Assembly: GCA_964450735.1 (NCBI GenBank)
Contig: CAYVDC010000008.1
Location: 647-64,646 of the forward strand
Direction of reading: 5' to 3'
From: an uncultured Candidatus Saccharibacteria bacterium
GTDB taxonomy: Bacteria; Patescibacteriota; Minisyncoccia; Phycocordibacterales; UBA9973
Length of the DNA stretch: 64,000 nt
Shown here: piece by piece, positions 2 to 14,521 of the stretch
How the letters are laid out: each line of letters opens with the position of its first letter
Numbering within the stretch: the first letter of the stretch is position 1
Position numbers and translations under genes: made by a program
Notes under the pieces: model-generated
Seen by the model: only the letters and a program-made list of their open reading frames with translations
Database searches by the model: none
What the model was told of the DNA's origin: nothing

Positions 2-1291
2 ATGGCTGCCGAGACCCATGTGTATGTTCCTGGCGACAGGAGGGCTAAAAATTTTGTTGCTTCATACTGTGGTCCACTTGGAAGCAAGGAGCCGTGCGAT
101 TCTACTTTACCATCATATAATCCTGCAACAGATATGACGGAATTCGTTTTTACATATCCGACCACAACTCGCCTGTATAGCGGTTTTGGCATGACGATTG
201 CTGTCGGCTTTGAAAAAGGAGTTCTTGCTTCGCCGACGAAATTGGACAGGGTGCTTGCATGGCTCAGTGATCATTGGTTTTATCCGGTTCCGCTCATTAT
301 TGTCGTGTTGTGGTTCAAAAAGCCCTTCAAGAGGTGGCTTCGCCGAAGAAAATTTTATAAAAACAATCCACTTGTTGTTGAATATGATGCAAATGGTTTT
401 AGCCCTCTTGAATCAGCAGGAACCCTTCATGGAGGAATTCTTCCTAAAGATCTTTCTGCGGAGATCATTTATCTCGCTACTCAAGGATATTTGAATATTA
501 GAAAAAACGATGATATATATTCTTTTGTAAGTACAGGGAAGAATACTGATGGATTGAAATATTACGACAGAGCGCTGCTCGATGGCATTGCAGGCAAAAA
601 CGAATCCGAACTGTCTGACGCTTTTTATGTCACTGCAGAAATAATCCGCACGAATGTTGGGGAAGAGTTAGAGCGAAATAATATTATTGAACCAAGAAAA
701 ATAAAAAAGGGTTTTAAGCCTGATAATAAGTGGGTGGTGCTCGGGGTTGCATTTTTCCTTGCGGTTAATCCTGGCATCTTTGTATGGCTTATTGCTGGGT
801 GGAAATTTGGATTTATCTTCTCTGTTTCGGCCGTACTGATTGGTATACTTTCGTTGTTCTTTGGTTTTTGTTCAGGTGTCCTGACTGACGCGGGATTTGA
901 GGCAGAACGCAAACTATTAGGTCTTAAGCATTATATCAAGATGGCTGAAGAGGAACGTATTAATTTTCATAATGCTCCGGAAAAGAATCCAGCAACGTTT
1001 GAAAAATTATTGCCATATGCCATGATTTTTGGCTTGGAAAAAAAGTGGGCTAAGGAATTTGAGGGAATATATACTGTGCCTCCGCAATGGTATTCAGATA
1101 CTTCAATGTCTAGCTTTTCAGCCATAACATTTGGTTCGTCACTGGGAAATTTCACAAACAGTTCTTCTTCGGCATTATTTTCTTCACCTTCCTCGAGCTC
1201 TTCAGGCTCTTCCGACGGGGGCTCTTCTGGTTCATCGGGCGGTGGTTCATCCGGCGGAGGGGGTGGAGGAGGTGGGGGAGGAAGTTGGTAA
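2..1291 (+). CDS. DUF2207-like integral membrane protein, 5'-partial (runs in from window edge)
   Basis: ORF open from window start; internal TM helices; C-terminal Ser/Gly tail ending GGGGGGGGGGSW typical of DUF2207 family proteins. Confidence 0.5.
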   Translation: MAAETHVYVPGDRRAKNFVASYCGPLGSKEPCDSTLPSYNPATDMTEFVFTYPTTTRLYSGFGMTIAVGFEKGVLASPTKLDRVLAWLSDHWFYPVPLIIVVLWFKKPFKRWLRRRKFYKNNPLVVEYDANGFSPLESAGTLHGGILPKDLSAEIIYLATQGYLNIRKNDDIYSFVSTGKNTDGLKYYDRALLDGIAGKNESELSDAFYVTAEIIRTNVGEELERNNIIEPRKIKKGFKPDNKWVVLGVAFFLAVNPGIFVWLIAGWKFGFIFSVSAVLIGILSLFFGFCSGVLTDAGFEAERKLLGLKHYIKMAEEERINFHNAPEKNPATFEKLLPYAMIFGLEKKWAKEFEGIYTVPPQWYSDTSMSSFSAITFGSSLGNFTNSSSSALFSSPSSSSSGSSDGGSSGSSGGGSSGGGGGGGGGGSW

Positions 1292-1298
1292 TAGACAA

Positions 1299-1329
1299 AA
1301 CAGCACAACCACTAGGTGTGCTGTTTTGC
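1299..1329 (+). terminator. rho-independent terminator (CAGCACA..TGTGCTG + TTTT)
   Basis: hairpin followed by T-run directly after stop of preceding ORF. Confidence 0.5.
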
Positions 1330-1530: not shown

Positions 1531-2541
1531 ATGAAACCAAAGAAAAAAGAATCACTCATCCTCGGACAGATGCTGCAGAAAATCGCTCCTCGAATCGGAG
1601 CGACGGTTATTTCAGAACCAGAATGGGGGATCGTAGGCCAGATCACTTTCAAGAGCGGCAGGCATTCTTACTATAGATATAATACGCTCGACCTCAATCC
1701 GTTGGGTGGTTCTGAAATTGCCACAGACAAAGACTATTCATTCTTCTTCATGAAAAAGATGGGATACCCCGTTGTCCCTGGATCCAAAACATTCTTCTCC
1801 GACGATTGGGCTCAAAAAATCGGTTCCAAAAGAACCATAGATGCAGCTTATCGCCATGCGCAAAAAATCGGTTTTCCTGTCATTGTAAAACCAAACAGCG
1901 GAAGCCAAGGATCGGGGGTTTCCCTTGTACATACCAAGCTTGAATTTTATAAAGCCCTTCGTTCTCTGTTCAAAAAAGTGCGAATCGTACTGGTGCAAAA
2001 ACCGGTTCGGGGTAAAGACTATCGTGTCGTCGTTCTCGACAAGAAAATAATTTCAGCGTATGAGCGTATTCCTCTCAATGTTGTCGGCAATGGCAAATCC
2101 ACAATCAAACAGTTGCTCAACATAAAACAAAAAGAATTTATTGCTTCGAGCCGCGACACGCAGATCAGGGCGGACGATCCTCGAATTTCACTCAAGCTGA
2201 AACATCAGGAATTGGATTTTACTTCTGTTCCTGAGAAAGGGCAACGAGTGTTTCTGCTTGATAATGCCAATCTTTCTACTGGCGGTGATTCATTGGATGT
2301 AACAGGCACTATTCACCCGGCGTTCAAAAAAATTGCCATTCAATTGACCCGCGACATGGGGCTTCGGCTTTGCGGCGTTGATCTGATGGTGGAAGGCGAT
2401 ATCAGCCAGAAACCAAATAAGTATTGGGTTCTTGAAATCAATGCAGCGCCAGGGCTCGATCACTACGTTAAGATCGGCAAAGCGCAAGAAAAGATTGTAG
2501 AAGATTTGTATCTCGAAGTACTCAAGCATATGGAAAAATAA
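1531..2541 (+). CDS. ATP-grasp domain protein (RimK/D-Ala-D-Ala ligase-like fold)
   Basis: IVKPNSGSQGSGVSLV nucleotide-binding motif and overall ATP-grasp layout. Confidence 0.5.
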   Translation: MKPKKKESLILGQMLQKIAPRIGATVISEPEWGIVGQITFKSGRHSYYRYNTLDLNPLGGSEIATDKDYSFFFMKKMGYPVVPGSKTFFSDDWAQKIGSKRTIDAAYRHAQKIGFPVIVKPNSGSQGSGVSLVHTKLEFYKALRSLFKKVRIVLVQKPVRGKDYRVVVLDKKIISAYERIPLNVVGNGKSTIKQLLNIKQKEFIASSRDTQIRADDPRISLKLKHQELDFTSVPEKGQRVFLLDNANLSTGGDSLDVTGTIHPAFKKIAIQLTRDMGLRLCGVDLMVEGDISQKPNKYWVLEINAAPGLDHYVKIGKAQEKIVEDLYLEVLKHMEK

Positions 2542-2544
2542 TCT

Positions 2545-2985
2545 ATGGAAACTCCGCTTCAAGAATTACAAAAAGTACTGTCTGATTGCCAAGGAGCAAT
2601 TTTGTATAAGCCGTTTGCAGGGGAGGTTGATTATTCAGACCCAACATTTCCTTTCAAGATACATTCAGAAATAATTGTATTGCCAAGCGACAAAGAAACC
2701 GATCCATTTGTATTGGCCGCTAAATGTGTAGAACAGTTTAAAAACAAAAATCCTTTTATTTTAATTCCTGGAACTCAATTTGATATGTTTGGCACTCGTC
2801 ATGGAAAAGGGGGAGGTTGGTATGATCGCTTTCTTTCTAAACTGCCAAAAACTTGGCCGAAAATTGGAATTGCTCATGAATCCAAGTTTTCATTTTCCCA
2901 AATCAAGAGAAAGTCATGGGACATTCCAATGGACTGGCTGATAGTTCTTGAAGGAAAAAAGTGGACAGTATACAAAACTCATTAG
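2545..2985 (+). CDS. 5-formyltetrahydrofolate cyclo-ligase family protein (short)
   Basis: IPGTQFDMFGTRHGKGGGWYDRFL matches the MTHFS family core motif (G.G.GYYDR). Confidence 0.6.
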   Translation: METPLQELQKVLSDCQGAILYKPFAGEVDYSDPTFPFKIHSEIIVLPSDKETDPFVLAAKCVEQFKNKNPFILIPGTQFDMFGTRHGKGGGWYDRFLSKLPKTWPKIGIAHESKFSFSQIKRKSWDIPMDWLIVLEGKKWTVYKTH

Positions 2986-3000
2986 AATTCGTTTTTCCGG

Positions 3001-3537
3001 ATGAATCGGGCTTTTACATTGGCCCTAAATGCGCTAGACTACCCCTATATGACAGATGTCCACAAGCGCCCGTCCTGGGATGAATACTTCATGGAAATAA
3101 TGGATGCTGTAGCAAAGCGTGCTACATGCGATAGAGGCCGTTCAGGCTGCGTTATTGCCCATGATAAGCGCATTGTAGCAACCGGTTACGTCGGCTCGGC
3201 TGCAGGCACCAAGCACTGCGACGAGGTTGGTCATGAGATGGCTACCGTTATCAATGATGACGGAACCGAGAGCAAGCATTGCATCCGTACCGCTCATGCA
3301 GAACAAAATGCCATTGTCCATGCTGCCCGCGTTGGAGCAGCATTAGAAGGCAGCACGCTCTACTGCAACATGACGCCATGTTACGCATGCGCAAAAATGA
3401 TCATCAACGCAGGCATTGTTCGCGTTGTCGCAAAGAAAGATTACCATGCAGGCGGACGATCGAAAGAAATTTTTAAGGAAGCAAATATCAAATTTGAACT
3501 TCTCAACGAAGTGATAGAAGTATACTCAAATCAGTAA
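3001..3537 (+). CDS. dCMP deaminase (cytidine/deoxycytidylate deaminase family, ComEB-like)
   Basis: HAEQNAI zinc-binding motif plus PCYACAKMIINAGI (PCxxC) motif. Confidence 0.75.
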   Translation: MNRAFTLALNALDYPYMTDVHKRPSWDEYFMEIMDAVAKRATCDRGRSGCVIAHDKRIVATGYVGSAAGTKHCDEVGHEMATVINDDGTESKHCIRTAHAEQNAIVHAARVGAALEGSTLYCNMTPCYACAKMIINAGIVRVVAKKDYHAGGRSKEIFKEANIKFELLNEVIEVYSNQ

Positions 3538-3538
3538 T

Positions 3539-4075
3539 ATGAAAAAAGTCATTATCGGTTCACAGAACCCAGTTAAAATCGAGGTGGTGCGCCAGGCGTT
3601 TGAACAAGTCTATCCCGAAGACCAGTTTGAATTCATTGGATGCAAAGCAAAGTCCGGCGTTTCCGACCAGCCAAAATCAGATGAAGAAACATTGTCTGGC
3701 GCATTCAACCGCGTGAACCACTGCAAGGAACAATATCCGGATGCAGATTTTTGGGTTGCTTCAGAAAGCGGCGTCATTGACGTTATTCAGCACATGTTTG
3801 AAACAAGCCACATCGTTATCGAATCCAAAGACGGAACGATCGGCCGCGCGAAAGCTGCTTCATTTGAAATTCCAAAACCAATCGCAGATGACATCCGCAG
3901 GAATGGCGTGGAGCTTGGAGTGGCGGCAGACAACCTCTTTGGCGTATCAAATTCAAAGCAGCAGGGAAGCATTATCGGTCTTCTGACCAACAATCTCGTC
4001 AACCGAACCTCAACGTATGTACAGAGCGCCATCTTTGCGCTTATCCGCCACAAGCACCCTGAGCTCTATAAATAG
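3539..4075 (+). CDS. inosine/xanthosine triphosphatase, YjjX-like (non-canonical NTP pyrophosphatase)
   Basis: N-terminus MKKVIIGSQNPVKIEVVRQAF closely parallels E. coli YjjX (VVCATTNPAKIQAILQAF); size about 175 aa. Confidence 0.6.
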   Translation: MKKVIIGSQNPVKIEVVRQAFEQVYPEDQFEFIGCKAKSGVSDQPKSDEETLSGAFNRVNHCKEQYPDADFWVASESGVIDVIQHMFETSHIVIESKDGTIGRAKAASFEIPKPIADDIRRNGVELGVAADNLFGVSNSKQQGSIIGLLTNNLVNRTSTYVQSAIFALIRHKHPELYK

Positions 4076-4122
4076 TTTGACTGATTCGCGAAGCATGGTA
4101 GAGTGAAGAAAAATGATAGAAT

Positions 4123-4683
4123 ATGATACCGAGCAAACACTTTACCGACCAAGACATTGAGGACATTGCGAATGCCTCATCATTTACTGAATTATTTAAA
4201 ATAGCTGAAAGGATACTTTCTAAAATGCCAGACGGTGTAGCGGGAATATGCGATCCAATTTCACAACACCGGGCAAAACATGAAAAGGAAACACTTTTTA
4301 CAAAAACAACCCAGGCTTTGATTGAAAAAGGATATGTAATTTTTGATGACCGTCCTTTTTTTAAGAAAATCAATGAACTGAAAGAGAATTGGTTTATTGC
4401 CCACAACCCTTCTAATGGAATTTGTACAGCGATTGTGGATGAATTTTTTATGCCGCTTCTTGCGACACGGAAAATCAAAACACTTTTAACCTTTCCAAAT
4501 TTCGACGTTTTCTATACCTCCTATTGGGAAGGCAGCCATGCAAAAGACTATGGCATAAAAGTACATGAGCTACCTTTTAACTGGCATGCAACATGCAGTG
4601 TTGAATCGCTTGCAGGTTTCGGCCTTGTGAAAGATACTTCAAATACAGGCCAAAACCCTGCTCCGCTTTCAGCAACTAATTAA
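4123..4683 (+). CDS. hypothetical protein
   Basis: 186-aa ORF in same orientation as the upstream nucleotide-metabolism genes; no recognisable motif. Confidence 0.4.
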   Translation: MIPSKHFTDQDIEDIANASSFTELFKIAERILSKMPDGVAGICDPISQHRAKHEKETLFTKTTQALIEKGYVIFDDRPFFKKINELKENWFIAHNPSNGICTAIVDEFFMPLLATRKIKTLLTFPNFDVFYTSYWEGSHAKDYGIKVHELPFNWHATCSVESLAGFGLVKDTSNTGQNPAPLSATN

Positions 4684-4707
4684 TTTACTCATCAAATCTG
4701 TTATCCT

Positions 4708-4745
4708 AAATAGCCGACCTAACCCGTTGGCTATTTTTTTATATA
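4708..4745. terminator. bidirectional hairpin terminator between convergent genes (overlaps folA stop)
   Basis: ATAGCCGAC..GTTGGCTAT stem followed by T7 on + strand and A-run on - strand. Confidence 0.4.
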
Positions 4746-5216
4746 TTCAGTAAAGACGAGACGGTACTGATTTTCATTATCAGCCTCCTGAATTTTTTCT
4801 GAACTTTTTTTCCAGCTGTCATCGATAGTGGGGAAGAATGTGTCCGCGTCGAAAGCCTGATCAACATGAGTGATATAAAGCTTGTCCGCATAGGGAAGGC
4901 TCATCTTGTACATTTCAGCTCCGCCGATGTCGAATACTTCCTCGTCGGTATTTTTGAAAAGTTCCAATGCTTCTTCCATCGAATGTGCTACTTCGATACC
5001 TTCAGCTGAATAATTCTGATCGCGAGTAATGACGATATTGCGGCGGTTTGGCAGGGCATGGGCAATTGATTCAAATGTCTTGCGTCCCATGATAACGGCA
5101 TGCCCGCGAGTGGTGTCTCGGAAATGCTTCATGTCGGCAGGAAGATGCCAGAGAAGCTGGTTGTCTTTGCCAAGTTCGTTATTTTTGCCGATAGCGGCGA
5201 TGAGGGAGAGGATCAT
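4731..5216 (-). CDS. folA: dihydrofolate reductase
   Basis: MILSLIAAIGKNNELGKDNQLLWHLPADMKHFRDTTRGHAVIMGRKTFESI is a classical DHFR N-terminus; start moved to internal Met (track ORF 4731..5285 would overlap upstream gene). Confidence 0.8.
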   Translation of the reverse strand: MILSLIAAIGKNNELGKDNQLLWHLPADMKHFRDTTRGHAVIMGRKTFESIAHALPNRRNIVITRDQNYSAEGIEVAHSMEEALELFKNTDEEVFDIGGAEMYKMSLPYADKLYITHVDQAFDADTFFPTIDDSWKKSSEKIQEADNENQYRLVFTEYIKK

Positions 5217-5251
5217 AAACGTATAGTAGCGTATTTCAAAGTTTTTTTCAT

Positions 5252-6949
5252 CTATGCCACTTCTTTTTGGTAGCACTCCACACAATAGATTCTTTTGTTC
5301 GTGTCTTCAGGAAACGCTGTCGTAATAGGCTTTTCACAATTCGCGCACGTGCTTTCACGAAGGATCGGCAGATTTAACTTCATAAAGCGTTCGCTCTCTC
5401 GGCACTTTGGGCAGCGAGTAGGAAGTGGGATGTTTAACTTTCTGAGAATCGAAAGCTCAAGGGGGGCGATGCGGTACTTTTTGTCGCAGGTCATGCAAGC
5501 AATGGCCTCATTGGTGATCGCGTCGGTGACTTCTGCAATCGTTTGAGGTAAACCATATCCATCAATGGTTGCTTCAACATTCTGCACTTCTTCATCGTTC
5601 CAGAAATAACCCTCGCTAAGAGCCTGTTCTTTTGTCTTCCAGAAATACTTCGATGCGTTCGCGCCATTGTAGGCGAATTTTGAAAATTCCGTTGGGAAGA
5701 ATTCACCGTAGAAATATTCTTTTCCTGTCTTATCGGTGTATGGTTGGACTTTCATATCGGCGATAATTTCCTCTCGCATTTTTTCATATGTTTCTTTGTC
5801 GTATTCTTTGTTGAGGATGGCGTACTTTTTGCGTTTGAGGTTAACGCAGCCAAGGTTGTACTTCGCGGCTACACACCACATAGAATACTCAGTTTCCATG
5901 ACATCAGGGAAGCAGTAGACGGAGAATTTTACCTTGCTGACATTGTCGCCAATGTTCGCTGATTCGTAGATAAGTTCTGCTCCATTGCCCCAGCCAGAAT
6001 AATCTTTGCAGTCTCGTGCAGGCGCGACAGTTATAAACTGGCAGTCACTGCAGTCTTCAGCACCGGTTGAGATAAACATGTTCTTGGAGTTCTTGGATTG
6101 GTACGTGTATTCCCCGGTTACATTAACGTTCATGGTATTGCCGCTGTATTCACGATACGGGTAATGATCCCAAAATTCCTGAATCTGCGCTTTGAGGTTC
6201 TCAATGCCTTCGCGAGTATCAAGTCGGAATTCTTTTACTTTTTCAAAATATTCTTCTTTTGAATATTTTTCGTTAAAGATGCAGTATGAAGCGCCGCGCA
6301 TATTCACGCAGCCGACGCAGTTGATGCAGCCGGAAAGATTTCTCGAGAACCAGACATCAGTACATGAATCGCACTCTTCAGAATAGAAAGTACGGTAACT
6401 TTTGTTTTGCCCGATCGATTCGTAGCACAACTCGGATTCCTGCATTCGCATGCAGTCGGAAATATCCTTACTATTGTTCAAGTATGAAGAGAAGCAGACA
6501 TTTTCACAGTAGTCGAGCCAAGTCGCAAGCAAGCAATTTTTGCCGTATGCGATTGCGTTGCAATAGTCGCAATCTTTGAGGGTGAGGTAGGTGGTTTCTA
6601 GTGCACAATATGGAGTCTTGTTTGAAAGTTCTTGTACCTGCTCCAAAAACGGCCGCGAAGGATCGTAATCCATTGCGTACTCGCTGCCGTCCCACTCATC
6701 TGCCCACCAGCATGGCTGGCAATAGACAGTAATGTCCTGCGTTGGGGGATACATTGAAAGGGTACGCTTCGCGCATTTGTCGCAGTTTCTCCAAAACAAA
6801 GACCAGCCGTTCACAAATGAAGTTCGTCGGATCAATCGGCAAAGGGAACACCATGTCGGAGGAGGCACACTTACCTTCGAGTAATAATCAAAATCTTCTG
6901 AAGAGATTGTGAAGTCATTTCTGCAGTTTTGGCAGGATTTAGTTTCCAT
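5252..6949 (-). CDS. cysteine-rich protein with N- and C-terminal tandem CxxC zinc-ribbon pairs; function unknown
   Basis: 565-aa ORF; four CxxC pairs in first 75 aa (CQNC, CSLC, CDKC, CQPC), four in last 85 aa (CMTC, CPKC, CANC, CVEC), many further Cys/Trp/Tyr between; translationally coupled to flanking genes. Confidence 0.6.
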   Translation of the reverse strand: METKSCQNCRNDFTISSEDFDYYSKVSVPPPTWCSLCRLIRRTSFVNGWSLFWRNCDKCAKRTLSMYPPTQDITVYCQPCWWADEWDGSEYAMDYDPSRPFLEQVQELSNKTPYCALETTYLTLKDCDYCNAIAYGKNCLLATWLDYCENVCFSSYLNNSKDISDCMRMQESELCYESIGQNKSYRTFYSEECDSCTDVWFSRNLSGCINCVGCVNMRGASYCIFNEKYSKEEYFEKVKEFRLDTREGIENLKAQIQEFWDHYPYREYSGNTMNVNVTGEYTYQSKNSKNMFISTGAEDCSDCQFITVAPARDCKDYSGWGNGAELIYESANIGDNVSKVKFSVYCFPDVMETEYSMWCVAAKYNLGCVNLKRKKYAILNKEYDKETYEKMREEIIADMKVQPYTDKTGKEYFYGEFFPTEFSKFAYNGANASKYFWKTKEQALSEGYFWNDEEVQNVEATIDGYGLPQTIAEVTDAITNEAIACMTCDKKYRIAPLELSILRKLNIPLPTRCPKCRESERFMKLNLPILRESTCANCEKPITTAFPEDTNKRIYCVECYQKEVA

Positions 6950-7793
6950 TTGTTTTATTTAAAACATCAGTTAATACATCAAGTCTGAAGATCATGAACC
7001 GTCGCAGTTCCTCTGTTCGTTCCGTCGGATCTTTTTCTTTTAAAAAATTAAAATCATCACTCATGATATTCAATTTAGATTTTTTAATTATTGCACTCCA
7101 GAACGCAGTATCTTCTAGCCCTTCTTTGAGAGCCTCAGATTTTTTTTGTAGCTCATCCTTCGCTTCAGGCATTTTAGGTTGAACTGGAAAGCCAAGAGCC
7201 GTTAATAAATTAATAACACTTCTCTTTAAACTCTCTTTTTCTCCATACGATGGAAGAACAGCTAACCTCCATTTTATATCTTTAATTAACTTGTCTTTTG
7301 GATAGTCGGGCGAATATGTGGCATCTGCCCAAGAACCATGGAATGCTTCTCCATAGTCATAGTGAGCAAATTTATTTTCCTCGGTCTTCGTTACATTATC
7401 TCCGAGAAATAATTTATCCCAATCGGAGAAAACATATTCTAACAAAAAGATTTCCGCTTCCAGTTCGCCTCTTCGTGCGGGGTCGGTATTTTCAAGATTC
7501 ATTTTCCTTGAATAATAAGTGCCGTCTTTTTCTATTATATCTGAAGAATGCAGAATACCCTTGGTTAGAAGAGATACAAAGTGTTCTACAGCTGGATTTT
7601 GCCGGTGGGGTGCTATATCTATTCTCTTCTCTATATATTCGTCTCCGCTGTCTACGTCTTCAAACTTACTGATGGGCACTTTGATTTTTTTATTGTTTTC
7701 GTCGAAAGAATAAAAAGTCTCCGAGGTTTCTTTTTTAACCAAGTTCAGTTTGTCGGATAGAGGGGAGGTATTGAAGGGGTTGAATTTTTCCAT
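6939..7793 (-). CDS. hypothetical protein (operon member between thyA and Cys-rich gene)
   Basis: about 285-aa ORF from MEKFNPF; stop overlaps start of downstream gene by 11 nt, start abuts thyA stop. Confidence 0.5.
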   Translation of the reverse strand: MEKFNPFNTSPLSDKLNLVKKETSETFYSFDENNKKIKVPISKFEDVDSGDEYIEKRIDIAPHRQNPAVEHFVSLLTKGILHSSDIIEKDGTYYSRKMNLENTDPARRGELEAEIFLLEYVFSDWDKLFLGDNVTKTEENKFAHYDYGEAFHGSWADATYSPDYPKDKLIKDIKWRLAVLPSYGEKESLKRSVINLLTALGFPVQPKMPEAKDELQKKSEALKEGLEDTAFWSAIIKKSKLNIMSDDFNFLKEKDPTERTEELRRFMIFRLDVLTDVLNKTNGN

Positions 7794-7797
7794 ATGG

Positions 7798-8757
7798 TTA
7801 CACCGCAATTGGTGCTTTAATTGCCGGATGTGGCTCGTAATTCTCAAGAGTGAAGTCTTCGTACTTGAAATCGAAAATATTTTTCACTTCAGGATTAAGT
7901 TTCATGGTCGGCTGTGGACGTGGTTCGCGAGAGAGCTGTTCTTTCGCTTGTTCGATGTGGTTGAGATAGAGGTGCGTGTCTCCGCCGGTCCAGATGAATT
8001 CACCGACTTCAAGTCCGGCAACCTGCGCCATCATCATAGTGAGAAGCGCATATGAAGCGATATTAAACGGAACGCCCAAGAAAAAGTCTCCGCTTCTTTG
8101 GTAGAGCTGGCACGACAGTTTCCCGTTAAGTACATGAAACTGGAAAAGGGAATGGCATGGCGGCGGCGCGTGATTGTGGTCATGGATGAGTTCGAAGATT
8201 TCTCCGACATTCCAGCCCGAAACCATGATGCGTCGTGAAGACGGATCGTTCTTCAACATATCTACAACATTTTGAATCTGGTCGATCTCATTTCCTTTGC
8301 GTGTTTCCCATCGGCGCCATTGCTTGCCGTAGATCGGTCCAAGTTCACCCCATTCGTTTGCGAATGCATCATCGGCTTTGATCTGCTCAACAAACCATAC
8401 AAGTTTTGCGTCCCATTCCGGAGAGTAACGAGGAAGGGTTTCGTTGAGTCCATTTTTTTCGAGGTATACCTGGAATGCCCATTCATTCCAAATCTTCACG
8501 TCGTTGCGAACCAAATATTTGATATTGGTATCACCAGTCAAAAACCAAAGAAGTTCGTGAATGATTCCGCGGATGAATACTTTTTTGGTTGTGAGAAGGG
8601 GAAAGCCTTTTGAAAGGTCGAATCGCATCTGGTGTCCAAAGACGCTCCGTGTACCCACACCTGTTCGCTCGGTACGGTCAGTTCCGTGGTCGAGAATATG
8701 CTGCATAAGCGACAAGTATTCCTTGTCTGCGTGTTCATGAGCTTCGTAGGATTTCAT
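7798..8757 (-). CDS. thyA: thymidylate synthase (ThyA, long form with about 50-aa insert as in L. casei-type TS)
   Basis: [41 protein letters not shown] (catalytic Cys) motifs. Confidence 0.9.
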
Positions 8758-8994: not shown

Positions 8995-10428
8995 ATGCCT
9001 ATACAGCATTCAGGTTCGCCACGCAGTGGGGGACCAAAACGTTCCTTTTCAGGTTCGTTTCGCGCGGAACCATCACGTGGTCCCCGTAAATTCGGGAGCG
9101 CAGCAAGCAGCGGAACTTCTACAAGTTCGGCCAGCGGCAGCTTTCCACGAAAGACATTTAATAGCAGCTCACGACCAGCATATGGTGCAAAGCCATCATT
9201 CGGTTCAAAGCCATTTAACGCAGGACGCAAGTCGTTCGGCGGAAGCACTGGCGCACGAGGAGGATTCAAGTCTTCATTCGGCGGCGGAGGGGGAGGACGT
9301 GGCGGTCGCCGCGGAGGAAATCCAGAGCGCATCGATACTTCACGATTCATCCGAAAGGCTGAAGTCGTAGAACTGAAACCATATGTGTCAAAGCACACAT
9401 TTGCTGATTTCCCATTCGATGCAAAACTCCATGCGACAATCGCAAAGAAAGGCTTCGAACATCCGATGCCGATTCAGGACCAGGCAATTATGCCGGCTCT
9501 TGAAGGCCGAGACGTCCTTGGTCTTGCAAACACTGGAACTGGAAAGACGGCAGCATTTTTGCTTCCGCTCATCCAGAAAGTCATGTTGAGCAAGAAAGAA
9601 CAGGTTCTCGTCCTCGCTCCGACTCGCGAACTTGCGACTCAGATCGAACAGGAACTTATGGACTTCGTTCGACCGCTCGGAATCTTTTCAGTGACATGCG
9701 TCGGTGGAATGCCGATCACCAAACAGATCCGCGAACTCAAGCGAGGCGTACACTTTGTCATCGGAACACCGGGACGAATCCGCGACCTTATTGAACGCAA
9801 GTCTCTTATCCTTGCTCCATTCAAGAGCATCGTCCTCGACGAAGCTGACCGAATGTTGGACATGGGATTCCGAGATGATATGGAATACGTCATGAAATTG
9901 ATGTCGCCAGATCGTCAGACATTATTCTTCTCAGCGACACTTTCACCTGAAATTAAAAAACTCACAGAAAAATATCTTAAAAATCCAGTTTCAATTTCAG
10001 TTGTCGTTCGCGACACTTCACGAAACGTCGACCAGGACGTTATCCGAGTCCTCGACCGTTCGAAGAAAATCGAGCAGCTCCACGATGTGCTTATTCACGA
10101 AGGTTCAGACAAAGTCTTGATCTTCCGCGAAACAAAGCGCGATGTAGACGAACTCGAGCGAGATTTGCGAGCACGTGGCTTCAAAGTTGGCGCCATTCAC
10201 GGCGACAAGCGAAATCGAGAACGCGTTCGAACTCTTGAAGCATTCAAGACGAATAACATCAGCATCTTGATCGCAACCGACGTTGCAGCCCGCGGACTTG
10301 ATATCCCGGATGTGACTCACGTGATCAACTACGATGTTCCTCAGACTTACGATACATACGTACACCGCATCGGCCGAACCGGCCGCGCCAACAAAAAAGG
10401 CAAGGCGCTTACGTTCGTACGAGGATAA
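8995..10428 (+). CDS. DEAD-box ATP-dependent RNA helicase with N-terminal RGG/Ser-Gly-rich region
   Basis: Walker A GTGKTAAF, VLDEADRMLDMGF (DEAD), SAT, HRIGRTGRA motifs; N-terminal GGRGGRRGG repeats. Confidence 0.85.
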   Translation: MPIQHSGSPRSGGPKRSFSGSFRAEPSRGPRKFGSAASSGTSTSSASGSFPRKTFNSSSRPAYGAKPSFGSKPFNAGRKSFGGSTGARGGFKSSFGGGGGGRGGRRGGNPERIDTSRFIRKAEVVELKPYVSKHTFADFPFDAKLHATIAKKGFEHPMPIQDQAIMPALEGRDVLGLANTGTGKTAAFLLPLIQKVMLSKKEQVLVLAPTRELATQIEQELMDFVRPLGIFSVTCVGGMPITKQIRELKRGVHFVIGTPGRIRDLIERKSLILAPFKSIVLDEADRMLDMGFRDDMEYVMKLMSPDRQTLFFSATLSPEIKKLTEKYLKNPVSISVVVRDTSRNVDQDVIRVLDRSKKIEQLHDVLIHEGSDKVLIFRETKRDVDELERDLRARGFKVGAIHGDKRNRERVRTLEAFKTNNISILIATDVAARGLDIPDVTHVINYDVPQTYDTYVHRIGRTGRANKKGKALTFVRG

Positions 10429-12043: not shown

Positions 12044-13246
12044 ATGAAAGACAAACAGATAGAAAAATTGATCAAAGCAGAAGACAAGCGACAAAAAAGC
12101 GTCATCAACCTCATCGCATCCGAGAACTATGTTTCAGATGACGTCTTAAAAGCGCTCGGTTCGAAACTAACTAATAAATACGCAGAAGGGTACCCAGGAC
12201 GACGATACTACGGCGGAAATGAAATCATCGACAAAGTAGAAACGCTTTGTATCGACCGCGCGCTCAAACTTTTTAAATTAAAGGCAGACAAGTGGCATGT
12301 GAATGCGCAGCTTCTTTCAGGTTCACCGGCAAACTTTGCATTGTACTCAGCATTGGTCACTCCAGAATTCGGCGCAGACGGAAAACCGCTCAAAAAAATC
12401 ATGGGTATGAAGCTGACATCTGGGGGACACCTAACTCACGGACACCCACTTTCAATGACAGGTAAACTGTGGAAGCCAATCCAGTTCGAGCTTGATGCGA
12501 CAACTGAACGCATTGACTACGACGCGCTCAAGAAAGTTGCCATAGCTGAAAAGCCTGACATCATCGTTGCCGGATTTACTGCATACCCACGTGTTGTTGA
12601 TTTCAAAAAGTTCCGAGAAATCGCTGACGCATGCGGCGCGTTGCTCCATGTGGACATGTCACACTTCGCAGGACTTGTTGCTGGTGGGGTATATCCATCT
12701 CCGTTTCCATATGCTGACACTGTGATGACGACAACTCACAAATCTCTACGTGGTCCTCGACAGGCGCTTCTCTTCGTCAAAAAAGACGAACGAGGTTTCG
12801 ACAAGAAACTCGACAAGATGGTTATTCCTGGACTCTTTGGCGGTCCGCATGAAAACAACATTGCGGGAGTAGCGATTGCACTCAAAGAAGCTGACTCACC
12901 AGCTTTCAAAAAATACGCAAAGCAGGTTGTTAAAAATGCGCAGACACTGGCAAAAGAATTGCAGAAGCTCGGCTGGAGAATAGTTTCTGGCGGCACTGAT
13001 TCACACCTTATTCTCATGGATACCTATATGAATGGCGTTGGCCCAACGGGAAGCGAAGCAAGCAAGCTTCTTGAAAAAGCTGGCATCATTGTGAACATGA
13101 ACACTGTTCCAGGCGATGTCCGATCAGTTATGGATCCATCTGGGGTACGATTGGGGACATGTGCGGAAACAACACGAGGAAAGAAAGAGAAGGATATGAT
13201 TGCGATTGCAAAGAAGATGGATAAGGCGTTGCGAGGGAAGAAATAA
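12044..13246 (+). CDS. glyA: serine hydroxymethyltransferase
   Basis: HLTHGHPLSMTGK and TTTHKSLRGPR (PLP-Lys) motifs; 400 aa. Confidence 0.9.
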   Translation: MKDKQIEKLIKAEDKRQKSVINLIASENYVSDDVLKALGSKLTNKYAEGYPGRRYYGGNEIIDKVETLCIDRALKLFKLKADKWHVNAQLLSGSPANFALYSALVTPEFGADGKPLKKIMGMKLTSGGHLTHGHPLSMTGKLWKPIQFELDATTERIDYDALKKVAIAEKPDIIVAGFTAYPRVVDFKKFREIADACGALLHVDMSHFAGLVAGGVYPSPFPYADTVMTTTHKSLRGPRQALLFVKKDERGFDKKLDKMVIPGLFGGPHENNIAGVAIALKEADSPAFKKYAKQVVKNAQTLAKELQKLGWRIVSGGTDSHLILMDTYMNGVGPTGSEASKLLEKAGIIVNMNTVPGDVRSVMDPSGVRLGTCAETTRGKKEKDMIAIAKKMDKALRGKK

Positions 13247-13247
13247 T

Positions 13248-13937
13248 ATGGAATTAAAAAATAAAATCGTTGTTATAACTGGAGGCACAAAGGGCTTAGG
13301 CAAAGCCTTGGCTTTGAGTTTTGCGCAGAAAGGAGCGCAAGTTATTTCAACGACTCATTCTGAAACTTCTAGAGAGGATTTTCCTGAGAGTGTTATATTC
13401 ATCAAGACTGATGTGCGAAGTGAAAAGGAAGTAAGCGATCTTGCAAAAAACGTAATTGAAAAATTCGGACGCATTGATATCTGGATTAATAATGCTGGAA
13501 TGCTGTACTCGTTCAATAAAGAAGACGAATATATTGATATGGATAAGGCCCATGAAATAATGGACGTGAATTTCTTTGGAACAGTTTTTGGGTGCCGTAC
13601 TGCGCTTAAATATATGAAAGAGCAAGGTGGATCAATTGTAACTATTCTTTCAACGGCTGCTCTTGATGCAACCAAATCAAAAGGCCTTAAGATTTATGCT
13701 GCAAGCAAATGGGCAGTGAACGGCTACCTCCAAGGGTTTAAGGCTGAGAATGAGGATTCAAATGTTTCTGTCATTTCCGTTTATCCTGGTGGAATGCAGA
13801 CAGAGTTGTGGAGAGAGTATAAACCGGAAAAGCTGCCTGAATATATGAGTCCAGAATTTGTTGCAGAGAAAATTATTCAAAATCTAGAACTAGAACAGCC
13901 TGAGGGTGACCTCGTCATTAAGCGTCCAGGAAAATAA
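13248..13937 (+). CDS. short-chain dehydrogenase/reductase (SDR) family oxidoreductase
   Basis: N-terminal VVITGGTKGLGKALA Rossmann motif; YAASK catalytic dyad region; start reset to MELKNK. Confidence 0.7.
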   Translation: MELKNKIVVITGGTKGLGKALALSFAQKGAQVISTTHSETSREDFPESVIFIKTDVRSEKEVSDLAKNVIEKFGRIDIWINNAGMLYSFNKEDEYIDMDKAHEIMDVNFFGTVFGCRTALKYMKEQGGSIVTILSTAALDATKSKGLKIYAASKWAVNGYLQGFKAENEDSNVSVISVYPGGMQTELWREYKPEKLPEYMSPEFVAEKIIQNLELEQPEGDLVIKRPGK

Positions 13938-14521
13938 TGCTTCCACAGTATATTGTTTTCATCTCAATCTTCACCTCATTCTTTGCAGGTTTTTTCTATA
14001 TTCGCGGAACGCTGCAAGGCAAGACAAAACCCAACCGCGTCAGCTGGCTGATTTGGTTTATTGCGCCCATCACTGCAGCAATCATCCAATTCCAACAAGG
14101 AGGAGGAATTTCTGCATTGCCAGTTTTCATGGCGGGCCTGATTCCATTCTTCGTACTGCTCGCTTCATTCAAAAACAAAAATGCATATTGGAAATTAGGA
14201 GTGCTTGACTACGTGTGTCTCGTTCTCTCGCTTCTCGCATTTGTTTTTTGGCTGATCTTTGACGAAGGCGTGCTGGCGACGCTATTTGCTATTCTTGCCG
14301 ACGGCATCGCATTCGTACCGACATATATAAAAACATGGAAAGCGCCGGAAACGGAAAGCTTGAGTTCGTATATGTCTGGTACGTTCAATTCAGCGCTCAG
14401 TCTTGTAACACTCCCAACAGTTTCATTTATTACCGCAGGATTCGCTGTGTATCTATTATTTGGAAACTTATCGGAAATTTTCCTGATAGTGTTGCGAAGA
14501 AAGAATATAAAAGAGATATAA
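13937..14521 (+). CDS. small polytopic membrane protein (possibly PnuC/SWEET-like transporter)
   Basis: 6-7 predicted TM helices, Trp-rich, 194 aa. Confidence 0.4.
   Translation: MLPQYIVFISIFTSFFAGFFYIRGTLQGKTKPNRVSWLIWFIAPITAAIIQFQQGGGISALPVFMAGLIPFFVLLASFKNKNAYWKLGVLDYVCLVLSLLAFVFWLIFDEGVLATLFAILADGIAFVPTYIKTWKAPETESLSSYMSGTFNSALSLVTLPTVSFITAGFAVYLLFGNLSEIFLIVLRRKNIKEI

Follow-up and report, generated by a model that had tools for sequence, protein, structure and literature searches.

A Patescibacteria protein family with four predicted zinc sites around a putative 12-residue beta-solenoid and a genomic link to orphan VirD4-like ATPases

Introduction

Patescibacteria (the candidate phyla radiation, CPR) represent a large share of bacterial diversity and have tiny genomes, typically around 1 Mb, in which many conserved genes carry annotations without function. 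Several described systems come close to parts of the locus studied here. VirD4-like type IV coupling protein (T4CP) homologues were counted in a 2025 survey, which found 5,713 of them in 2,918 Patescibacteria genomes, about 2 per genome, only 148 of them near virB4, and whose authors raised exaptation as a possibility (PMC12102498). The CxxC-x17-CxxC domain binds zinc, as established by inductively coupled plasma mass spectrometry on homologous domains of Methanosarcina mazei (PMC12704099), and zf_Tbcl (PF13451), a "probable treble clef domain", is a Pfam family that is itself functionally unassigned. In this study, we analyzed a gene of an uncultured Candidatus Saccharibacteria bacterium (GenBank assembly GCA_964450735.1), located on a stretch of 64,000 nucleotides (contig CAYVDC010000008.1, positions 647 to 64,646), hereafter the window. 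Its product, referred to as X, combines paired fingers of both types with a predicted solenoid core, and members of its family are found next to a pair of VirD4/TraD-like ATPases within a dnaK-dnaJ operon.

Results

X is a soluble cysteine-rich protein with duplicated ends and a duplicated core

The open reading frame (ORF) encoding X is a real gene, as shown by its full-length relatives and by its substitution rates. Comparison with the 94%-identical orthologue of locus L010 gave a nonsynonymous rate (dN) of 0.037 and a synonymous rate (dS) of about 1.97 (dN/dS about 0.02), so X is under very strong purifying selection. X is a soluble, acidic, cytoplasmic protein (isoelectric point, pI, 4.9), in which no signal peptide or transmembrane segment was found (maximum 19-residue Kyte-Doolittle average 1.0). 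Aromatic residues make up 14% of the sequence and the C-terminal module is its sole basic part. Nucleic-acid binding, as suggested in the original prediction, would be a candidate activity for this overall acidic protein. X contains 36 Cys and a single His, and its Cys content reaches 6.4%, compared with 0.82% for the remaining 58 proteins predicted in the window. Twelve CxxC motifs are present, or 13 when overlapping ones are counted, compared with 2.2±1.4 in 20,000 shuffled versions of the sequence, not one of which reached 13. The architecture of X is a zf_Tbcl finger and a CxxC-x17-CxxC finger, followed by two copies of a 12-residue solenoid with a helix, an acidic aromatic connector and the same finger pair again, with the features listed below (pLDDT, predicted local distance difference test).

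5252-6949, minus strand: X, complete ORF of 565 residues plus stop with an ATG start; member of orthogroup OG0 of the Patescibacteria "four-zinc beta-solenoid" family
6665-6949, minus strand: N-terminal double module, predicted to bind zinc, residues 1-95, pLDDT 88-94
6839-6934, minus strand: predicted zinc site 1 (C6, C9, C34, C37), zf_Tbcl-like finger, then a basic helix CRxxRR
6710-6784, minus strand: predicted zinc site 2 (C56, C59, C77, C80), CxxC-x17-CxxC finger
6227-6577, minus strand: predicted solenoid repeat A, residues 125-241, with 12-residue coils (about 8-9) spanning 127-234 and a helix cap at 231-241
5765-6121, minus strand: predicted solenoid repeat B, residues 277-395, second copy of repeat A carrying small insertions, helix cap 385-401
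5522-5743, minus strand: conserved acidic, aromatic-rich connector, residues 403-476, consensus YGEFFP..SPFAYN...GYRW.D., pLDDT 84-96
5255-5509, minus strand: C-terminal double module, predicted to bind zinc, residues 481-565, mildly basic (pI 8.7)
5402-5497, minus strand: predicted zinc site 3 (C485, C488, C513, C516), Cys4 set of the C-terminal module
5273-5347, minus strand: predicted zinc site 4 (C535, C538, C556, C559), CxxC-x17-CxxC finger

The terminal cysteines are kept or lost as four sets

An original prediction, made from the sequence alone, had described four CxxC pairs at each end of the protein and read them as paired zinc ribbons. These pairs start at residues 6, 34, 56 and 77 within the N-terminal 80 residues and at 485, 513, 535 and 556 within the C-terminal 81, spanning 6-80 and 485-559. 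Both modules share the identical spacing CxxC-x24-CxxC-x18-CxxC-x17-CxxC, and residues 2-84 are homologous to residues 481-563 (hhalign probability 99.7%, E 3e-26). The prediction of paired zinc-binding modules is further supported by the behaviour of the ligands in 384 relatives. The Cys of site 1 are kept in 95-98% of the relatives and are invariant in A1, A2 and A3, while those of site 4 are kept in 97-99%. At site 2, C59, C77 and C80 are all three present in 224 relatives and all absent in about 157 (phi 0.98-0.99), and C488, C513 and C516 of site 3 also vanish jointly (phi 0.77-0.95). The complement of sites is constant within each orthogroup. OG0 has all four (86-87 of its 87 members, with site 2 kept in 87/87), site 2 is lost in OG1, OG4, OG5, OG8 and OG9, and site 3 is missing in OG5 and OG9. 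Since each ligand set is either retained or lost as a whole, the 16 terminal Cys can be assigned to four sequentially paired Cys4 metal sites, which are predicted to be structural zinc sites, and only these 16 Cys appear to behave as ligands.

Weak to moderate matches to described fingers are in line with this assignment. The profile zf_Tbcl_2 (TIGR04272 in NCBIfam) matched residues 532-563 with an E value of about 1e-4 (22.5 bits for a Pfam cut-off of 27, and 22.3 bits for an NCBIfam cut-off of 36), and residues 55-81 weakly. The match of zf_Tbcl to residues 4-42 was weak (E 0.043, 14.2 bits for a cut-off of 24). When 84 relatives were scanned, zf_Tbcl_2 was matched by 62 of them (E<0.1, best 1.6e-7) and zf_Tbcl by 48 (best 4e-6), and a precomputed match to PF23477, the Pfam entry of zf_Tbcl_2, is present on several orthologues of X.

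The central cysteines follow a 12-residue period

The original prediction had also noted about 20 Cys between the two ends, and exactly 20 were found, including those of CDYC (127), CDSC (193), CINCVGC (208-214) and CSDC (300). A reading of them as further metal or redox CxxC motifs did not hold. Hydrophobicity autocorrelation of the core peaks at multiples of 3 and is highest at 12, and 13 of the 14 Cys of residues 115-223 fall in one modulo-3 phase (P=1.8e-5). Repeats A and B are homologous (hhalign probability 99.5%, E 7e-23). Among 84 family members, positions 1, 4, 7 and 10 of the repeat A coil, which hold all of its Cys, are small or aliphatic in 100, 100, 97 and 82%, and Asn, Asp or Gly occupies positions 6, 9 and 12 in 51-64%. 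In relatives, the central Cys are replaced singly by Ser, Val, Leu or Thr and do not co-vary. Because of this periodicity and of these single replacements, the central CxxC motifs are best explained as inward i/i+3 positions of a narrow solenoid and not as metal knuckles; the 20 central Cys are thereby predicted to line the interior of a narrow beta-solenoid as non-ligand residues. Additional metal sites formed by them were rejected on the same grounds. A 4Fe-4S ferredoxin motif at C208xxC211xxC214 was also considered and rejected, as the fourth Cys-Pro is missing and the Cys do not co-vary; these three residues occupy coil positions 10, 1 and 4 of consecutive coils, and 24% of 142 relatives have Ser in place of C214. 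The connector that follows repeat B has a mean net charge of -6.8 over the family.

X belongs to no characterised family

As originally predicted, X could not be placed in any characterised family. Sequence searches of the PDB with X alone or with a 92-sequence profile returned nothing, or marginal LIM matches, and a Foldseek comparison of the X model with the PDB gave no match. Pfam, NCBIfam, PADLOC (0 families) and PHROGs yielded no useful match for whole X or for pieces of its core, the sole PHROG match being weak (E 2e-5) and to a family of unknown function. A one-by-one Pfam scan of the 84 relatives revealed no recurrent central match and no Hexapep, X showed no sequence or fold match to ribosomal proteins, and literature searches retrieved no description of the family. 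The view that X is neither a radical SAM enzyme nor NrdD-like was borne out, with the CxxxCxxC motif and a Radical_SAM Pfam match both missing and no glycyl-radical or NrdD match in Pfam or NCBIfam.

The family is large and found in Patescibacteria

Counting homologues and inspecting their neighbourhoods in CPR genomes, as the original prediction had suggested, uncovered a large family with two recurrent genomic contexts, described below. Full-length matches to X number more than 1,000 when clustered at 90% identity, and all are annotated as hypothetical. A profile search of 1.84 billion representatives retrieved 4,333 clusters at 50% identity, 1,708 of them with E<=1e-30, and most of the 150 clusters listed are full length (530-620 residues). 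A search started from one paralogue gave at least 8,000 candidates, and species-representative genomes contain at least 539 family loci. The named relatives are all Patescibacteria (Paceibacterota, Nomurabacteria, Parcubacteria, Minisyncoccia). Identity within the family is at least 55% across the class. Clustering of 243 full-length copies produced at least 10 orthogroups, with X in the largest, OG0.

Gene context was compared in 88 family loci, all from one bacterial class. At least two same-strand copies are present in 35 of them, in arrays of up to 8 copies (about 14 kb) whose genes overlap or lie 1-3 nt apart. Copies split into two adjacent ORFs (e.g. 357 + 167 residues) were seen in L022, L043, L068, L076 and L087, and reflect either frameshifts, assembly errors or pseudogenised paralogues. 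One contig labelled "Burkholderiales bacterium" (L056, JAMPXW010000001.1) has the Paceibacteria gene order pilM/N/O - rluA - two family copies - rplS and is probably mis-binned or mislabelled. A viral protein had been named as an alternative in the original prediction, and a phage origin was rejected since viral collections are essentially devoid of the family: one marginal IMG/VR fragment and 0 tblastn matches in 50,697 phage records, the plasmid collection being outside this search.

Family members adjoin a pair of VirD4/TraD-like ATPases in a dnaK-dnaJ operon

The paralogues of X and some OG0 members adjoin genes for DnaK, DnaJ and soluble ATPases related to VirD4 and TraD, in the arrangement below.

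L007, L020 and L091-L169 (e.g. L007:3867-5999 and L007:11133-12584): soluble VirD4/TraD-like ATPase pair inside the dnaK-dnaJ operon

The usual order of the block is dnaK - long ATPase (ATPaseL) - zero to four family copies (CYSB) - (rsmE) - short ATPase (ATPaseS) - dnaJ, and this order is shuffled between loci with membership retained. The association was examined reciprocally in 80 metagenome-contig loci anchored on the short ATPase. Family members were present in 67 of them; among the 44 loci that span 12 kb or more, they were present in 41 and directly adjacent in 34. The ATPases match TrwB_AAD_bind, T4SS-DNA_transf (T4SS, type IV secretion system) and TraG-D_C, and the long one also matches the phage family phrog_5156 (E 4e-65). 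The short ATPase is 76-87% identical to the reference sequence (13 aligned) and ends with E(A/G)EP(M/L)I. The long ATPase carries a zf_Tbcl_2 finger and a long disordered tail with conserved islands, terminated by the motif EVPEDVL(R/K)KILE; the conserved tails read EVPEDVLRKILE for ATPaseL and EAEPMI for ATPaseS. A CxxC-x15-19-CxxC finger was found in 49/49 long ATPases, the L007 example scoring above the Pfam cut-off, and sites 2 and 4 of X are homologous to this finger (for site 4, hhalign probability 85-91%, E about 1e-6). The ATPase pair seen with the family fits the orphan T4CP homologues of the published survey (PMC12102498).

A conserved pair of small genes (about 116 + 96 residues) recurs between the two ATPases (L123:9356-9998, L139:9349-9997, L161:7542-8173, L169:7859-8509), where it replaces the Cys-rich paralogues in some loci and adjoins them in others; it had no match in NCBIfam. 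Unlabelled ORFs of about 590 residues in the ATPase loci were considered as divergent paralogues and rejected, being Cys-poor membrane (ABC-like) proteins.

An RluD-like synthase gene and rplS usually flank the close orthologues

The close orthologues of X usually lie between the gene of an RluA-family pseudouridine synthase, whose best equivalog match is RluD, and rplS. Position -1 is taken by the RluD-like synthase in 23 loci, 15 of which have a 4-nt gap, and position +1 by L19, the rplS product, in 26 loci. The genes pilM/N/O are found upstream of many orthologues.

The window itself shows a thyA-folA context

In the window, X is part of a tight operon, thyA-orf302-X-folA, whose other elements are as follows.

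7798-8757, minus strand: thyA, first gene of the operon (Pfam Thymidylat_synt, E 1.6e-118)
6939-7847, minus strand: orf302, 302 residues; its stop overlaps the X start by 11 nt, and it is translationally coupled to X
4731-5285, minus strand: folA (dihydrofolate reductase), likely start near 5216, about 36 nt past the X stop
4708-4736: terminator-like hairpin downstream of folA

No match was found in Pfam, NCBIfam or PHROGs for orf302 or for a 186-residue ORF at 4123-4683 (plus strand). The former gave a weak PADLOC match (PDC-S59, E 0.019), and the latter has a 49%-identical homologue in L010. A role of orf302 as a conserved partner of X was rejected, as it is missing from L010. Only the window and L010 have the thyA...X...folA arrangement, with different filler genes, and neither thyA nor folA was found near the family genes of the other 86 of the 88 loci compared. 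The link with nucleotide metabolism implied by the original prediction is not supported by this distribution, and the thyA/folA surroundings of X are most likely a lineage-specific accident of gene order.

The thymidylate/folate genes form a cluster (1531-5285, 7798-8757 and 12044-13246), a notable feature in a small Patescibacteria genome, comprising an ATP-grasp ligase, a short 5-formyltetrahydrofolate (5-FTHF) cyclo-ligase-like gene, a dCMP deaminase, NTPase_I-T (DUF84), folA, thyA and glyA (serine hydroxymethyltransferase). X had looked nucleotide-linked because this dense cluster surrounds it. Divergent from the thyA operon, a DEAD-box helicase gene (8995-10428, plus strand) encodes an N-terminal Gly/Ser/Arg-rich low-complexity extension of about 110 residues (RGG-like). 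About 7 kb from X, a 194-residue multi-pass membrane protein (13937-14521, plus strand) is 42% identical to "c16tm". In many other genomes the c16tm gene belongs to the ATPase block, where it comes after dnaJ or after a copy of the family, and the gene in the window may be left over from this synteny. A 429-residue membrane-type protein (2-1291, plus strand) has a long C-terminal Ser/Gly tail (...GGGGGGGGGGSW), and the antisense "poly-Pro" ORF at 967-1308 (minus strand) is a mirror artefact of this tail.

Discussion

We tentatively prefer a non-enzymatic role for X, in which its zinc fingers and solenoid would form an adaptor or scaffold of the module made up of the orphan ATPases, DnaK and DnaJ. 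The family would work with the two soluble VirD4/TraD-like hexameric ATPases that share an operon with DnaK and DnaJ. The rigid solenoid pair would display a repetitive Tyr/Phe/Asn/Asp surface, the two zinc modules could serve as docking elements, and the paralogues may be interchangeable adaptors or clients of an ATP-driven remodelling or translocation module. A non-enzymatic role is inferred from the lack of a conserved His, the repeat-equivalent nature of the conserved polar residues and the lack of an enzyme family match.

Several observations weigh against this adaptor role. The non-enzymatic character is deduced from an absence of evidence, and the solenoid regions have a pLDDT of 57-75, which corresponds to moderate model confidence. 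Within OG0, the RluD-like gene is present in 31/87 and rplS in 27/87, versus an ATPase within 4 genes in 18/87; the window contains no ATPase gene of this type, no dnaK and no dnaJ. Eight ATPase pairs have no family member in between. The association with the ATPases may also be inflated in part by inherited synteny, because all loci come from one class.

A broader proposal, which we consider possible though rather unlikely, is that the family, the two orphan ATPases and DnaK/DnaJ constitute a cytoplasmic machine that has gone unrecognised and is known to date from Paceibacteria-type genomes only. In it, conjugation-exapted hexameric translocases would act on or through interchangeable adaptors, the solenoid representing a new fold class of 12-residue coils with a Cys/Ser-lined core. 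Candidate roles of such a machine would be protein or nucleoprotein remodelling, assembly of ribosomes or other complexes, and handling of imported DNA.

The gene order of the close orthologues raises another, unlikely explanation, in which the zinc modules bind rRNA in the manner of zinc-ribbon ribosomal proteins. X would then assist the large subunit, in its assembly or in its function, alongside the RluD-like synthase and L19, and might make up for biogenesis factors lost by Paceibacteria. Synthase - X - rplS is the dominant context of these orthologues, rsmE, dnaK and dnaJ of the paralogue block are also linked to ribosome biogenesis, and very strong purifying selection fits a housekeeping role. 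In addition, der, rplA and mostly era are missing in Paceibacteria (PMC12641178). However, X is acidic with a single basic module and resembles no ribosomal protein in sequence or fold, ribosomal factors do not typically form tandem arrays, which here reach 8 paralogues, and the synthase-rplS context is broken in the window, L003/L009, L005 and others. As for rsmE, it may be a bystander, since dnaK-dnaJ-rsmE is an old operon.

The operon that the paralogues share with dnaK and dnaJ, together with the high Cys content and the four Cys4 sets of X, could also point to a redox- or metal-sensing holdase or a metal buffer of the heat-shock operon, its activity being switched by oxidation of Zn-Cys4 or of the Cys ladder by analogy with the zinc centres of Hsp33 and DnaJ. 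We find this improbable, as the central Cys can be replaced one at a time by Ser, Val or Leu without co-variation, site 2, or sites 2 and 3, can be missing from entire orthogroups, and X has no similarity to Hsp33 or DnaJ.

Proximity to T4CP homologues, tandem expansion of paralogues and the pilM/N/O genes upstream of many orthologues would be expected if X were a cargo or effector that VirD4-like coupling proteins recognise and that then leaves the cell by type IV secretion or a pilus route. This is quite improbable: the ATPases are soluble and not near virB4, the identity across the class and the dN/dS of X are unlike those of fast-evolving effectors, and the C-terminus of X is a folded, invariant zinc finger with no disordered export signal. 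Very improbable is a beta-helix enzyme, acyltransferase-like or modifying polymers or nucleic acids, with catalysis on the solenoid surface, given that no Hexapep or other enzyme family was matched in 84 members, that the coil has 12 and not 18 residues, and that the conserved polar residues look structural, no His being conserved. A zinc or redox protein of thymidylate, folate or nucleotide metabolism is the least probable of all and is largely refuted because its context is not conserved: X sits in the thyA-orf302-X-folA operon near the dCMP deaminase, NTPase, 5-FTHF cyclo-ligase-like and glyA genes and L010 also has it between thyA and folA, but their filler genes differ, none of the other 86 loci follow and X matches no nucleotide-enzyme family.

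With thousands of clusters, strong purifying selection and a core without a Pfam, NCBIfam or PDB relative, the family is among the larger conserved unknowns of Patescibacteria, and an array of 8 copies is sizeable for genomes near 1 Mb. The genomic link supplies a concrete set of partners, namely two orphan VirD4-like ATPases and the dnaK-dnaJ operon. This link also offers an explanation for the retention, in Patescibacteria, of about two T4CP homologues per genome that are remote from any T4SS, which the survey had not explained (PMC12102498).

Compared with known systems, only the finger motifs of X belong to described domain families, themselves uncharacterised, while the core, the architecture and the neighbourhood match nothing characterised. 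Sites 2 and 4 have the same spacing as zf_Tbcl_2 proteins such as M. mazei A00184 and A01980; these are free-standing and of about 40-60 residues, whereas in X the finger is a quarter of the zinc complement of a 565-residue protein. Sites 1 and 3 show the zf_Tbcl pattern CxxC..F.I....FY.K...P..CxxCR..R. LIM domains likewise consist of two consecutive Cys-rich fingers and have a marginal profile similarity to residues 505-563, below threshold (E 0.03, 15 bits for a cut-off of 22.9; PDB LIM chains E>=0.027), but LIM fingers are contiguous with His/Asp ligands and those of X are independent Cys4 fingers 18 residues apart. The neighbouring ATPases differ from VirD4/TraD coupling proteins in being soluble, in scoring far below NCBIfam cut-offs and in residing in a dnaK-dnaJ operon and not with virB4. 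Hexapeptide acyltransferases and gamma-carbonic anhydrases, which are left-handed beta-helix proteins, have an 18-residue coil, in contrast to 12 in X; identity of X with the former was rejected from this period, the missing catalytic His (the single His of X is not conserved) and the lack of a Hexapep match. The antifreeze-type solenoids (the Tenebrio molitor antifreeze protein 1EZG with its 12-residue coils, spruce budworm 1M8N, the ryegrass ice recrystallisation inhibitor 3ULT) and curli CsgA have no sequence relationship with X. Antifreeze proteins are secreted and disulfide-braced, while X is cytoplasmic with Cys interchangeable with Ser or Val, and its predicted solenoids are helix-capped and set between zinc modules. 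The likeness does not imply ice binding. A cytoplasmic antifreeze-like 12-residue solenoid with a Cys-lined core, placed between duplicated double zinc fingers, appears unprecedented. The newness concerns not the mechanism but the family and its architecture.

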